A stretch of 64,000 bases of DNA, taken from assembly GCF_003334335.1 (NCBI RefSeq), contig NZ_QOWQ01000023.1. One strand, given 5' to 3'. Source of the stretch: Escherichia coli (GTDB taxonomy: Bacteria > Pseudomonadota > Gammaproteobacteria > Enterobacterales > Enterobacteriaceae). This document shows positions 59,601 to 62,600 of this stretch, one piece after another. Position 1 is the first letter of the stretch, and the number at the start of each line of letters is the position of its first letter. A program made the position numbers.

Positions 59601-62600
59601 AGGCAGATAAGAATGAGTGCAGGTCGCTTCACGACTCTTCTCCAGAGGGGCAGAATAACCACACCGGAGTGTGGTTATGGTTAATCCCTTCATACTTCTA
59701 GCCACAGATGCAATGACTCGAATTATTTTGGGGATACATACTTTATTACTGGGTACTGGTGGTCGTGGTTGTGGTGGTCCCGGTATTAGAACCATCACCG
59801 CCACCGGTTGCCGCAAGCGCGACACCCACCGCCGAGCTTACGGTGCTGACGCTGGTCGCGGAGGAACTCCCCGCCGAAACCGACGTTGCTGCCGACCCTG
59901 CCGCTTCGCCCACCTGTACAGGTGCAGCCCACGCAGAAGTCGCCGCAAGCGCAGATATGGCAAAAATGCCATACAGAACTTTTTTCATAACAATTTCCCT
60001 TCATTGAATGAATGGAGATTTACCCAAAAACATTTCGGGCGGGATCGAGTATACACAACTAAAGCATGCGAATTACGGCGCGGGGAATTAGCGATGGCGT
60101 TTTAGGATAATTGGAATGAATATCAAATATAAGTTTCAACTTATATTTAAATAACAATAAAAATCATAAACTTAAAATAAAAACAAAAGCAATTAATCTG
60201 CGTATTTTCCGAAATAAACAACGATTAAAAATCTATTTTAGGATTAACCTCATGGTATGATTTCCGTTAAATCACAGACAAGGGGATTTATCTGATAAAA
60301 AAATGCCGACATAACGTCGGCATTGTTATTAAGGTTATTTAATCAATCGTGCTATGTATTAATTGCCGAATACGATGTACATATCGGCATCGACCTGTAG
60401 GCCTGATAAGACGCGACCGCGTCGCATCAGGCATCGGTTGCCGGATGCGGCGTGAACGCCTTATCCGGCCTACATATCGACGATGATTAACCGCGCCACG
60501 CTTTATAGCGGTTAATCAGACCATTGGTCGAGCTATCGTGGCTGCTGATTTCTTTATCATCTTTCAGCTCTGGCAGAATACGGTTCGCCAGCTGTTTACC
60601 CAGTTCCACGCCCCACTGGTCGAAGGTGAAGATGTTCAGGATCACGCCCTGAGTAAAGATTTTGTGCTCATACAGCGCAATCAACGCACCCAGGCTGAAC
60701 GGAGTGATTTCACGCAGCAGGATGGAGTTGGTCGGGCGGTTACCTTCGAATACTTTGAACGGCACCACGTAGTCAAGCGTTGCCGGATCTTTACCCTGAT
60801 CACGATATTCCTGCTCAACCACTTCGCGGGATTTACCAAACGCCAGCGCTTCGGTCTGGGCGAAGAAGTTAGACAGCAGTTTCTGGTGATGATCAGAGAG
60901 CGGGTTATGGGTGATAGCCGGAGCGATGAAATCGCACGGTACCATTTTGGTTCCCTGGTGGATCAGCTGGTAGAACGCGTGCTGACCGTTAGTGCCTGGT
61001 TCACCCCAGATAATCGGGCCAGTCTGGTAATCCACAACGTTACCGTTACGGTCAACATACTTACCGTTGGACTCCATATTGCCCTGCTGGAAGTACGCCG
61101 CGAAACGGTGCATATACTGGTCATACGGCAGAATCGCTTCAGTTTCCGCACCAAAGAAATTGTTGTACCAGATGCCAATCAGCGCCAGCAGTACAGGCAG
61201 GTTTTTCTCGGCAGGCGTGGTGGAGAAATGCTTGTCCATCGCGTGTGCGCCGGAAAGCAGTTCAACGAAGTTATCAAAGCCGATGGAGAGAACAATCGAC
61301 AGGCCAATCGCTGACCACAAAGAGTAACGGCCGCCAACCCAGTCCCAGAACTCGAACATGTTGGCAGTATCAATACCAAACTCGCCAACGGCTTTGGCAT
61401 TGGTGGAAAGCGCCGCAAAGTGTTTTGCAACGTGTTTTTCATCACCTGCCGCTTTCAGGAACCAGTCACGCGCGCTATGGGCGTTGGTCATAGTTTCCTG
61501 AGTGGTGAAGGTTTTAGATGCTACCAGGAACAGCGTGGTTTCCGGGTTTACTTTTTTCAGCACTTCCGCGATGTGAGTCCCATCGACGTTAGAAACAAAG
61601 TGCATGTTCAGGTGGTTTTTGTACGGACGCAGAGCTTCGGTCACCATGTATGGGCCGAGGTCAGAACCGCCGATCCCGATGTTCACTACGTCAGTGATTG
61701 CTTTGCCGGTATAACCTTTCCACTCACCGGAAATAATCGCTTCTGAGAAGGTTTTCATCTTCTCCAGCACCGCGTTGACTTCCGGCATTACGTCTTTGCC
61801 ATCAACCAAAATCGGGGTATTGCTACGGTTACGCAGCGCTACGTGCAGCACGGCGCGGTTTTCAGTGCGGTTGATCTTCTCGCCAGAGAACATCGACTTA
61901 ATCGCGCCCGCCAGATCGCACTCTTTCGCCAGATCCTGTAATTTCGCCAGCGTCTCTTCAGTGATGCGGTTTTTGGAGTAATCCACCAGCATCTGATCGT
62001 CGAAGGTTGCGGAGAACTTAGAAAAACGATCGCCGTCTTTAGCAAAAAGATCGGCGATCGTAACGTCTTTCATTTCATCGAAGTGTTTCTGTAGTGCCTG
62101 CCAGGCAGCGGTCTGCGTTGGATTGATGTTTTTCATTAGCAATACTCTTCTGATTTTGAGAATTGTGACTTTGGAAGATTGTAGCGCCAGTCACAGAAAA
62201 ATGTGATGGTTTTAGTGCCGTTAGCGTAATGTTGAGTGTAAACCCTTAGCGCAGTGAAGCATTTATTAGCTGAACTACTGACCGCCAGGAGTGGATGAAA
62301 AATCCGCATGACCCCATCGTTGACAACCGCCCCGCTCACCCTTTATTTATAAATGTACTACCTGCGCTAGCGCAGGCCAGAAGAGGCGCGTTGCCCAAGT
62401 AACGGTGTTGGAGGAGCCAGTCCTGTGATAACACCTGAGGGGGTGCATCGCCGAGGTGATTGAACGGCTGGCCACGTTCATCATCGGCTACAGGGGCTGA
62501 ATCCCCTGGGTTGTCACCAGAAGCGTTCGCAGTCGGGCGTTTCGCAAGTGGTGGAGCACTTCTGGGTGAAAATAGTAGCGAAGTATCGCTCTGCGCCCAC

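Follow-up and report, generated by a model that had tools for sequence, protein, structure and literature searches.

yjbE, the first gene of the Escherichia coli yjbEFGH operon: an apparently fixed-length threonine tract and a composite upstream region

Does the run of seven threonine codons in yjbE change in length, as in a phase-variable surface protein, and is the AT-rich DNA ahead of the gene a silenced promoter? Both questions arise from a preliminary description of a 64,000-nucleotide stretch of Escherichia coli DNA (contig NZ_QOWQ01000023.1, assembly GCF_003334335.1), which we call the window and whose coordinates are used throughout. The yjbE coding sequence lies at 59746–59988 on the minus strand and specifies 80 amino acids plus a stop codon. 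Its identification as yjbE was confirmed: it is 100% identical to MG1655 yjbE, the gene and its flanks have 100% nucleotide identity to E. coli K-12 yjbE (b4026), and the Pfam family PF11106 (YjbE, exopolysaccharide production protein) spans the whole reading frame (E = 5.5e-33, model positions 1–79 of 79). Its K-12 counterpart lies between the same neighbours, pgi upstream and yjbFGH downstream, and RefSeq gives both the same product name; no difference was found. The gene, the operon, its stress regulation and its paralogy with gfcABCD have already been published, and the detail added here is descriptive. The account developed below, which we consider probable, is that yjbE is the first gene of the Rcs- and osmotically controlled yjbEFGH operon, with a fixed Thr7 tract, a suggested role of its product in the envelope, and a composite upstream region.

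The signal peptide and low-complexity tail ascribed to YjbE were borne out by the sequence and by the PF11106 match. The predicted Sec signal peptide (residues 1–21; 59926–59988, minus strand) consists of MKK, a hydrophobic core and an AWA/AP cleavage site, and the n/h/c pattern and the A-x-A/AP site are kept in the 79 species of the orthologue alignment. The mature protein has 59 residues, with T13, S12, A11, G9 and V7 as the composition. It combines a short low-complexity stretch of Ser, Ala and Thr with a conserved hydrophobic segment and a C-terminal motif that is almost invariant. In an AF2 model built from a 17-sequence alignment, residues 3–17 are helical, and the sole internal helix, of low confidence (pLDDT 54), is formed by residues 44–61. 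These residues correspond to a hydrophobic A/V/G-rich segment (residues about 44–61; 59806–59859, minus strand) that is nearly invariant between genera. The signal peptide and the C-terminal tail are common to members of PF11106, as seen in 16 distant members and the 79 orthologues. A profile search of the PDB with the YjbE alignment gave chance low-complexity matches only, and an NCBIfam scan of YjbE, YjbF, YjbG and YjbH returned no families. Substitutions in yjbE amount to 38% at third codon positions vs 4.7% at positions 1 and 2, and the mean identity of mature YjbE is 0.91, against 0.81 for YjbF. The whole 80-residue protein, signal peptide included, is under strong purifying selection at the protein level, and the low-complexity YjbE is, after the barrel protein, the best-conserved protein of the module.

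Downstream, on the same strand, lie yjbF (58994–59632; PF11102, a homologue of PDB 2in5, 39% identical to GfcB), yjbG (58260–58997; the GfcC N and C domains, PF20616 and PF06251, a homologue of PDB 3p42, 42% identical to GfcC) and yjbH (56164–58260; PF06082, 65% identical to GfcD). The reading frames overlap by 4 nt between yjbF and yjbG (58994–58997) and by 1 nt between yjbG and yjbH (58260). Pfam and the gene neighbours therefore agree with the four-gene module already proposed for this locus, with its lipoprotein, periplasmic GfcC-like protein and beta-barrel. The arrangement is that of the yjbEFGH/gfcABCD type: a small Thr-rich first gene, then a lipoprotein, a GfcC-like protein and a barrel, in overlapping frames. 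The operon was described by Ferrieres et al. (2007, Microbiology 153:1070), as cited in PMC8592465, PMC8117528 and PMC5461412; the literature ties it to exopolysaccharide production or export (PMC8592465, PMC5461412), the polymer being still uncharacterised. The module and its paralogy with gfc are discussed in PMC8592465 and PMC11494523, and gfcABCD, to which the K-12 operon yjbEFGH is paralogous, comes from the group 4 capsule locus.

Like YjbE, GfcA (YmcD, of gfcABCDE-etp-etk) is encoded by a first gene ahead of the paralogous B, C and D genes. The two proteins share an architecture of signal peptide, Thr/Gly/Ala-rich low-complexity region and hydrophobic A/V/G segment, and the GfcA tail, (S/G)GDG-S-x-NT-S/T-rich and ending in STT(R), is comparable with that of YjbE. 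However, their pairwise similarity is not significant (BLAST E = 65). GfcA has 101 residues, is about 30% Thr throughout and carries TTTTTT near its N-terminus, whereas the T7 of YjbE is C-terminal. Furthermore, the gfc operon runs on into wza/wzb/wzc paralogues and the yjb operon does not. Some PF11106 genes are orphans with no adjoining yjbFGH, so dependence on YjbFGH is not universal.

The Thr7 tract (59758–59778, minus strand) reads ACC ACC ACA ACC ACG ACC ACC and lies within a conserved C-terminal motif that ends in T7-ST(Q/R). The codon run had been called slippage-prone. This was overstated: the seven Thr codons are of three kinds, and perfect tandem repeats in the coding sequence reach 8 nt at most (ACCACCAC). 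Alleles were counted with designed DNA queries on about 5,421–5,426 complete E. coli genomes; the collection of protein homologues, which consists mostly of frameshifted or truncated singletons and lacks the exact K-12 YjbE, was not used for tract statistics. Thr7 is present in about 98% of 5,421 complete genomes. The T7 query returned 103 records at 90–95% identity, which comprise 85 T9 and 18 T5 alleles, and Thr12 was found in one genome; no T6 or T8 allele was seen among the E. coli genomes queried. The comparison across strains thus bears out a near-fixed T7 but not strict invariance, as the Thr5, Thr9 and Thr12 alleles, all in-frame, make up about 2% in total. T9 occurs on four flanking haplotypes and T5 on two, and these haplotypes also carry other alleles.

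For the comparison between species, one genome per species was scanned with YjbF as the anchor. Exactly Thr7 was found in 74 of 79 Enterobacteriaceae species, from more than 20 genera, and it is encoded by 52 synonymous codon arrangements. Because T7 is kept in these 74 species despite so many arrangements, the length of the tract is under purifying selection, and Thr7 is a fixed-length motif at the protein level whose codons drift synonymously. The same C-terminal tail is seen in distant PF11106 members of 45–60% identity. The recurrence of the Thr5, Thr9 and Thr12 alleles on different haplotypes indicates that the tract is a weak recurrent hotspot for ±6-nt indels. Occasional replication slippage in the mixed-codon tract, in 6-nt steps and once in a 15-nt step, gives rare in-frame alleles in E. 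coli that do not spread. These length variants look transient rather than adaptive.

Could the tract nevertheless be a contingency locus, at which slipped-strand mispairing changes the Thr length often and so subjects a surface or secreted protein to phase or antigenic variation? The recurrence of T5, T9 and T12 on several flanking haplotypes could be taken in this way, as could a laboratory-evolved mucoid clone with a +9-bp insertion somewhere in yjbE. The tetranucleotide and homopolymer tracts of classical contingency loci in Haemophilus and Neisseria likewise lie in envelope genes and change length recurrently. However, the yjbE tract is interrupted, its changes are rare and in-frame, and its length is kept between species; a long perfect repeat and frequent, usually frame-shifting differences between strains, the hallmarks of such loci, are both absent. 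Since all natural tract variants are in-frame, there is no on/off switching, and the rare true inactivations of yjbE are due to IS1 or to the loss of one nucleotide outside the tract. Phase variation of the tract, as the preliminary description had it, is thus largely refuted by the counts within the population and across species, and we regard it as very improbable.

A different reading of the Thr codons comes from the spacer between yjbE and yjbF, which contains an invariant stem-loop, AUAACCACAC-(U/C)(U/C)CG-GUGUGGUUAU, followed by a U-rich tail (59655–59678, minus strand). The hairpin has a ΔG of −14.2 kcal/mol, and the spacer fold has z = −2.4. It is identical in all genera sampled, with a loop that is mostly UUCG and a tail of UUUUG, UUUCG or similar. 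By analogy with the thr operon, yjbE could be a Thr-codon-rich leader reading frame whose translation controls the hairpin and hence read-through into yjbFGH. The Thr codons are about 80 nt upstream of this U-tailed hairpin in E. coli and about 50 nt in most species, and AACCACAC, the 5′ arm of that hairpin, is similar to Thr codons. Nevertheless, the strong selection on the whole of YjbE is at the protein level, and the family occurs without downstream yjbFGH. Furthermore, the duplex energies between the Thr run and the 3′ arm are no different from those of random synonymous recodings (mean z +0.11, 52 distinct runs), and a thr-type attenuator was rejected; we consider such control scarcely credible. 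The hairpin is a candidate partial terminator or mRNA-stabilising hairpin, and its presence 3′ of yjbE may allow the cell to make more YjbE than YjbFGH.

The region upstream of yjbE had been described as 500 bp of extremely AT-rich DNA. This holds for a core of about 150–200 bp (60100–60250), which has a GC content of 16–21% and is the most AT-rich stretch of 100–200 nt in the window (0.16 at 100 nt, 0.20 at 150 nt). It does not hold for the full 498 nt (59989–60486), whose GC content is 0.376, compared with 0.508 for the whole window. This ranks among the lowest 7.7% of 498-nt windows, and there are four other islands in the window that are clearly more AT-rich (GC 0.28–0.30). The value of 37.6% is reached because the 498 nt also take in the pgi terminator and a REP pair. 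The REP/BIME pair (60380–60486) lies between the pgi stop codon and this terminator, and Rfam naRNA4 scores 79.5 bits at 60400–60470. It contains the inverted repeats I1, I2, I7 and I9, matches to its sequence number about 38 per genome in E. coli, and it is absent from Salmonella. The pair is an insertion specific to Escherichia, and it lowers the AT content of the 500 bp as a whole. The intrinsic pgi terminator (60295–60324, minus strand) has a stem at 60324–60302 and a T-run, is bidirectional in shape, and covaries in its stem between species (GCCGAT/ATCGGC, GCCGGC/GCCGGC). The AT-rich core is kept in other genera, with a median minimum GC of 0.21 per 100 nt. A perfect 11-bp palindrome at 60125–60148 was dropped from consideration, as it is not conserved in other genera. 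Thus, the '500-bp promoter' is a composite of REP pair, pgi terminator, candidate divergent sRNA, AT-rich core, and conserved promoter and leader.

The proximal promoter and the leader of about 75 nt (59989–60062, minus strand) are near-invariant, with 90–100% column identity among 67 Enterobacteriaceae sequences and near-identity to Salmonella. They contain GTTGTGTATACTCG and a probable −10 element, TATACT, at 60048–60053. The leader can form hairpins, CCCGAAA/UUUUGGG and one at 59992–60020 that takes in the Shine–Dalgarno sequence AAGGGA, although the fold of the yjbE leader is not significant (z = −1.0). The spacer hairpin and the leader are both invariant, so neither gives covariation. Farther upstream are two conserved boxes, box 1 (TGAGGTTAATCCTAAAAT; 60235–60252, minus strand), a candidate RcsB-type box, and box 2 (TTCCAATTATCCTAAAAC; 60099–60116, minus strand), which has TTTTAGGAT(A/T)A in common with box 1. 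The plus strand of box 1 (TAGGATTAACCTCA, 60239–60252) fits TN(G/A)GAN4(A/C)CTNA, the consensus given for lower-affinity RcsB boxes (PMC7913699), and has one mismatch to the main consensus; T..RGA....CTCA is retained in all species aligned. The RcsB-type pattern is not enriched across the window, and box 1 is therefore only a candidate. A consensus search for the RcsAB box (TaAGaatatTCctA) found no site within three mismatches upstream of yjbE. The two TTTTAGGAT(A/T)A boxes in the AT-rich core may be RcsB/RcsA sites. That yjbE responds to envelope stress through Rcs, as anticipated, is documented, as is osmotic induction (PMC5461412, PMC3599342, PMC8117528; also bioRxiv 10.1101/2025.05.13.653802), and PMC12057083 likewise reports that the gene is induced when Rcs is activated or the envelope is stressed.

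The candidate divergent sRNA is a match to Rfam RF02053 (STnc430, an enterobacterial sRNA) at 60185–60334 on the plus strand, which scores 79 bits where the gathering threshold is 47. Oriented away from yjbE and towards pgi, it runs into the shared terminator hairpin. The copy between pgi and yjbE in Salmonella is on the same relative strand and scores 166 bits, and 13 of 20 further species have the match too, in every case on the opposite strand to yjbE. Thus, both a score above gathering and synteny with Salmonella place the sequence in the STnc430 family. The E. coli copy shares with that of Salmonella the intergenic position, the strand relative to its neighbours and the 3′ terminator hairpin, but it is missing 11 nt of the inner stem. 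For 14 STnc430 homologues, RNAalifold returned almost no consensus structure and none that covariation supports, only the terminator stem covarying visibly, and no expression or target data for STnc430 were found in the literature searched.

An alternative is that the AT-rich region mainly serves as a promoter silenced by H-NS, and that the STnc430 match reflects conserved operator sites of yjbE rather than an sRNA gene of E. coli. By composition, 60100–60250 would indeed qualify as promoter DNA of the AT-rich, curved type associated with H-NS (GC 0.16–0.21, the lowest in the window). Conservation here falls in short blocks that lack a covariation-supported structure, the best-conserved of which fits an RcsB-type box, and the loss of inner-stem nucleotides leaves the E. 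coli copy at half the Salmonella score. On the other hand, the match is above the gathering score in E. coli and the 13 other species, at a constant strand and place. It is also flanked by signals: a σ70-like promoter (ATAACA-16-TAAAAT; 60151–60178, plus strand) ends 7 nt before the 5′ end of the match, and the terminator hairpin is at its 3′ end. H-NS binding data were not found in the papers searched, and those that mention both yjbE and H-NS gave no support for silencing. We regard this alternative as doubtful, and we retain the composite region with its candidate sRNA.

What, then, is the function of YjbE? YjbE and GfcA were termed 'entirely uncharacterized' in 2024 (PMC11494523). We suggest that YjbE is a small component of the periplasm or the cell surface, either a cargo or an anchor. 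Its handling would fall to YjbF, a LolA-like lipoprotein, to the Wza-like YjbG in the periplasm and to YjbH, an outer-membrane protein with two barrels. Damage to the Yjb machinery or to YjbE itself might perturb the envelope and so switch on Rcs. The yjb mutants described in the literature are mucoid, which fits Rcs activation by such damage.

YjbE could also be a bitopic inner-membrane protein, as GfcA has been annotated, with the A/V/G segment spanning the membrane once the signal peptide has been cleaved and the Thr tail in the cytoplasm; it would then act on polymer synthesis or on Wzx/Wzy-type steps and not be exported. The RefSeq name of GfcA is 'threonine-rich inner membrane protein', a hydrophobic stretch in GfcA extends over about 30 residues, the AF2 model makes residues 44–61 of YjbE helical, and the last residue of several homologues is R or K. 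However, the clearly hydrophobic core of the YjbE segment (AVGVALAA) is about 8–12 residues long with Ser/Thr/Gly flanks, which is short for a membrane span, and in E. coli the tail lacks positive charge. All three partners, YjbF, YjbG and YjbH, belong to the periplasm or the outer membrane, and the operon encodes no inner-membrane component of synthesis. A bitopic YjbE thus seems quite improbable.

If YjbE is exported, as we prefer, it might be, and GfcA by analogy with it, a client of the YjbFGH/GfcBCD machine and not an accessory of polysaccharide export, with Thr7 at the surface anchoring the capsule. This proposal is tentative, and we think it unlikely as it stands. The tiny secreted protein would have its hydrophobic segment chaperoned by the LolA-like lipoprotein for insertion into the second barrel of YjbH, and the seven-residue Thr tail at the surface would be a fixed-length site for the attachment or anchoring of capsule polymers, covalent or otherwise. 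If this were true, it would explain the extreme conservation of T7, the excess of YjbE suggested by the spacer hairpin, and the activation of Rcs by changes to the machine or to the length of the tail.

The results settle the question of phase variation, for which the Thr tract is not a device. A C-terminal motif of invariant length across Enterobacteriaceae, together with the high conservation of the protein, argues for a precise molecular role of YjbE and GfcA. For those who work on the Gfc and Yjb systems, the use of this is modest: it marks YjbE and GfcA as worth targeted experiments.

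The window DNA is E. coli K-12-like, and the ORF at 59746..59988 on the minus strand, with an 80-aa product, is 100% identical to MG1655 yjbE, annotated as 'exopolysaccharide production protein YjbE'. The product is a full-length match to Pfam PF11106 (E = 5.5e-33). The gene is followed on the same strand by yjbF (PF11102; homologue of PDB 2in5), yjbG (GfcC N and C domains; homologue of PDB 3p42), and yjbH (PF06082), with overlaps of 4 nt and 1 nt between the reading frames. Upstream, pgi ends at 60487, and beyond it is lysC with its lysine riboswitch (62373–62569, plus strand; Rfam RF00168, 99.5 bits), as expected in this K-12 region. 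The observation is real, and its interpretation at the gene level, a four-gene exopolysaccharide module, is right and already published. The yjb operon has been linked to the making of an uncharacterised exopolysaccharide (PMC8592465, PMC5461412), and its reported activators are RcsA/RcsB and stress, both osmotic and envelope (PMC5461412, PMC3599342, PMC8117528, PMC12057083, bioRxiv 10.1101/2025.05.13.653802).

The preliminary description had also proposed that the seven-threonine run near the C-terminus (59758..59778, minus strand) is prone to slippage and phase-variable in length. Its codons are ACC ACC ACA ACC ACG ACC ACC, and the longest perfect tandem repeat in a scan of the whole gene is 8 nt. 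Tract length was compared across strains by searching 5,426 complete E. coli genomes, 5,421 of which carry yjbE, with designed DNA queries. A 101-nt Thr7 query gave 103 records with 90–95% identity. A Thr9 query based on strain SW07091, where ACCACA is duplicated, gave 85 records at ≥95% identity, and a Thr5 query gave 18–19 ungapped matches, so that 85 Thr9 and 18 Thr5 records account for the 103. The Thr8 query had no match in these complete genomes, and Thr6 is excluded by the Thr5 search of the same set. Thr12 occurs in one genome, by a 15-nt duplication. The E. coli length variants are in-frame without exception. Thr9 is found on four distinct flanking haplotypes, one of them that of K-12, and Thr5 on two, both shared with Thr9. 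Since the variants recur on different haplotypes, the tract is a weak hotspot of ±6-nt slippage, with Thr7 still kept in ~98% of genomes. In the mRNA (59758–59800, minus strand), a hairpin is predicted between the Gly codons of the neighbouring GGGDG (GGU GGC GGU GAU GGU) and the codons of the Thr run (ACC...); it is composition-driven and might favour the 6-nt slippage observed.

Inactivations of yjbE are rare and unrelated to the Thr tract. The gene is a pseudogene through a 1-nt deletion in an O111:H8 strain, and two strains carry an IS1 insertion in yjbE or its region; the knock-out loci from other genomes are L003 (665–1684), L002 (611–862), and one further match in an E. coli genome. In one Salmonella genome (L005), yjbE is truncated by a Mu-like prophage.

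For the comparison between species, YjbF was used as the anchor to collect loci from 80 Enterobacteriaceae species, and yjbE was found in 79. Exactly seven Thr follow NTG in 74 of the 79, and TTTTTSTTT is found in the remaining five, which form the Kluyvera group. There are 52 synonymous codon arrangements of the tract. Over the whole gene, the mean difference from E. coli is 38% at third codon positions and 4.7% at positions 1 and 2, and conservation is higher for mature YjbE than for YjbF (mean identity 0.91 versus 0.81). Even remote PF11106 members with only 45–60% identity retain a C-terminal GGG(D/N)GSNTG-T7-ST. Judged from these sequence comparisons, the YjbE protein is under purifying selection, Thr-run length included. 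With Thr7 in nearly all E. coli genomes, variants in-frame, and exactly T7 in most species, the tract behaves as the opposite of a contingency locus, and slippage-driven phase variation is not supported. What stands of the slippage idea is a low-frequency, in-frame, recurrent polymorphism (Thr5, Thr9, and Thr12).

The 500 bp upstream of yjbE had been described as among the most AT-rich DNA in the window and typical of a silenced promoter. The 498-bp pgi–yjbE spacer has a GC content of 37.6%, versus 50.8% for the whole window, and falls in the lowest 7.7% of same-size windows. Four other islands (12567–14256, 26360–27705, 34122–35973, and 43561–45490) are much more AT-rich, with minimum GC of 0.28–0.30 per 498 nt. 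At the 100–200 nt scale, 60100–60250 is the single most AT-rich DNA of the window (GC 16% per 100 nt), so the claim is correct for a core of ~150–200 bp but not for the full 498 bp. The pgi–yjbE synteny and the AT-rich core are conserved across genera (median spacer 369 nt; median minimum GC 0.21 per 100 nt). H-NS silencing of yjbE is not documented in the literature found that mentions both.

This upstream region is a composite of several elements. Between the pgi stop codon and the pgi terminator (60295–60324) is a REP/BIME pair (60380–60486; Rfam naRNA4 match at 60400–60470), a sequence with ~38 copies per genome that is absent from the Salmonella spacer. On the plus strand, divergent from yjbE, there is a match to STnc430 at 60185–60334 (Rfam, 79 bits versus a gathering score of 47), and a predicted sigma70-like promoter (60151–60178, plus strand) ends 7 nt upstream of it. 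The Salmonella copy (166 bits) is likewise in the pgi–yjbE spacer on the same relative strand, and 13 of 20 further species have a match in the same place. The Rfam family is a Salmonella sRNA candidate; its E. coli match, which has no annotation in the RefSeq K-12 records examined, is mildly notable. RNAalifold on the homologues gave covariation support nowhere beyond the terminator, so the conserved blocks could be DNA operators rather than RNA. Two conserved boxes in the AT-rich core, at 60235–60252 and 60099–60116, have the common motif TTTTAGGAT(A/T)A. The former fits the lower-affinity RcsB box (PMC7913699) and is a candidate site; a search upstream of yjbE found no strong RcsAB consensus. 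The ~75 nt upstream of the start codon (59989–60062, minus strand), with a probable −10 TATACT and the leader, are near-invariant, at 90–100% identity over 67 sequences from >20 genera, far above the remainder of the spacer. A second hairpin in the leader is predicted to occlude the Shine-Dalgarno sequence.

Between yjbE and yjbF is a stem-loop, AUAACCACAC-N4-GUGUGGUUAU (59655–59678, minus strand), which is identical in every Enterobacteriaceae genus sampled, in most with a UUCG tetraloop and with a U-rich tail downstream. It is possibly a partial terminator/attenuator or a stabiliser, giving more yjbE than yjbFGH message. Attenuation like that of the thr leader was considered because the 5′ arm resembles Thr codons, and was rejected, as the complementarity between the Thr codons and the 3′ arm is no better than that of synonymous recodings (mean z +0.11). 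Most species have a spacer of 60–65 nt here; that of E. coli measures 113 nt, and lengths of up to 187 nt occur in others. This spacer is a recurrent landing site of ~50–120-nt REP-like insertions (strain 317, L095; Citrobacter/Enterobacter loci, e.g., L019, L023, L043, and L044).

The YjbE N-terminus appears, from its n/h/c pattern, to be a Sec signal peptide, with a putative cleavage site between AWA and AP that is conserved in orthologues. The AF2 model is poor (pLDDT 54); besides the signal peptide, its sole predicted element is a helix at residues 44–61, the conserved A/V/G-rich segment. The exact K-12 YjbE is absent from a 15-billion-protein collection. A homologue search of that collection gave mostly single frameshifted sequences, suggesting that it under-represents low-complexity proteins or filters them out.

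What is the function of YjbE? YjbF, YjbG, and YjbH are 39%, 42%, and 65% identical to GfcB, GfcC, and GfcD of the paralogous group 4 capsule operon. GfcA and YjbE are both products of first genes and have a common architecture, but their BLAST similarity is not significant. Both have been described as functionally uncharacterised (PMC8592465, PMC11494523), and modification of GfcA and its export via GfcD were put forward as a speculation by Larson et al. (PMC8592465). In the preferred mechanism, YjbF, YjbG, and YjbH would act on YjbE as their small client or anchor. A caveat to this mechanism comes from orphan PF11106 genes, which lack neighbouring yjbFGH. Among the orphan and distant members (L007/L008 and L006, 6001–6255; L011, 6001–6240), one orphan is near hha and points away from an RcsA-like GerE regulator on the other strand, one directly follows a prophage tail module (tail-fibre and GDSL-lipase), and one stands alone; another distant member has yjbF next downstream. 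Disturbance of the YjbFGH machine or of the YjbE peptide might lead to envelope stress. It is mildly notable that a functionally uncharacterised low-complexity peptide keeps its Thr7 tail so strictly, and in the preferred mechanism this tail of fixed length would be functionally read.
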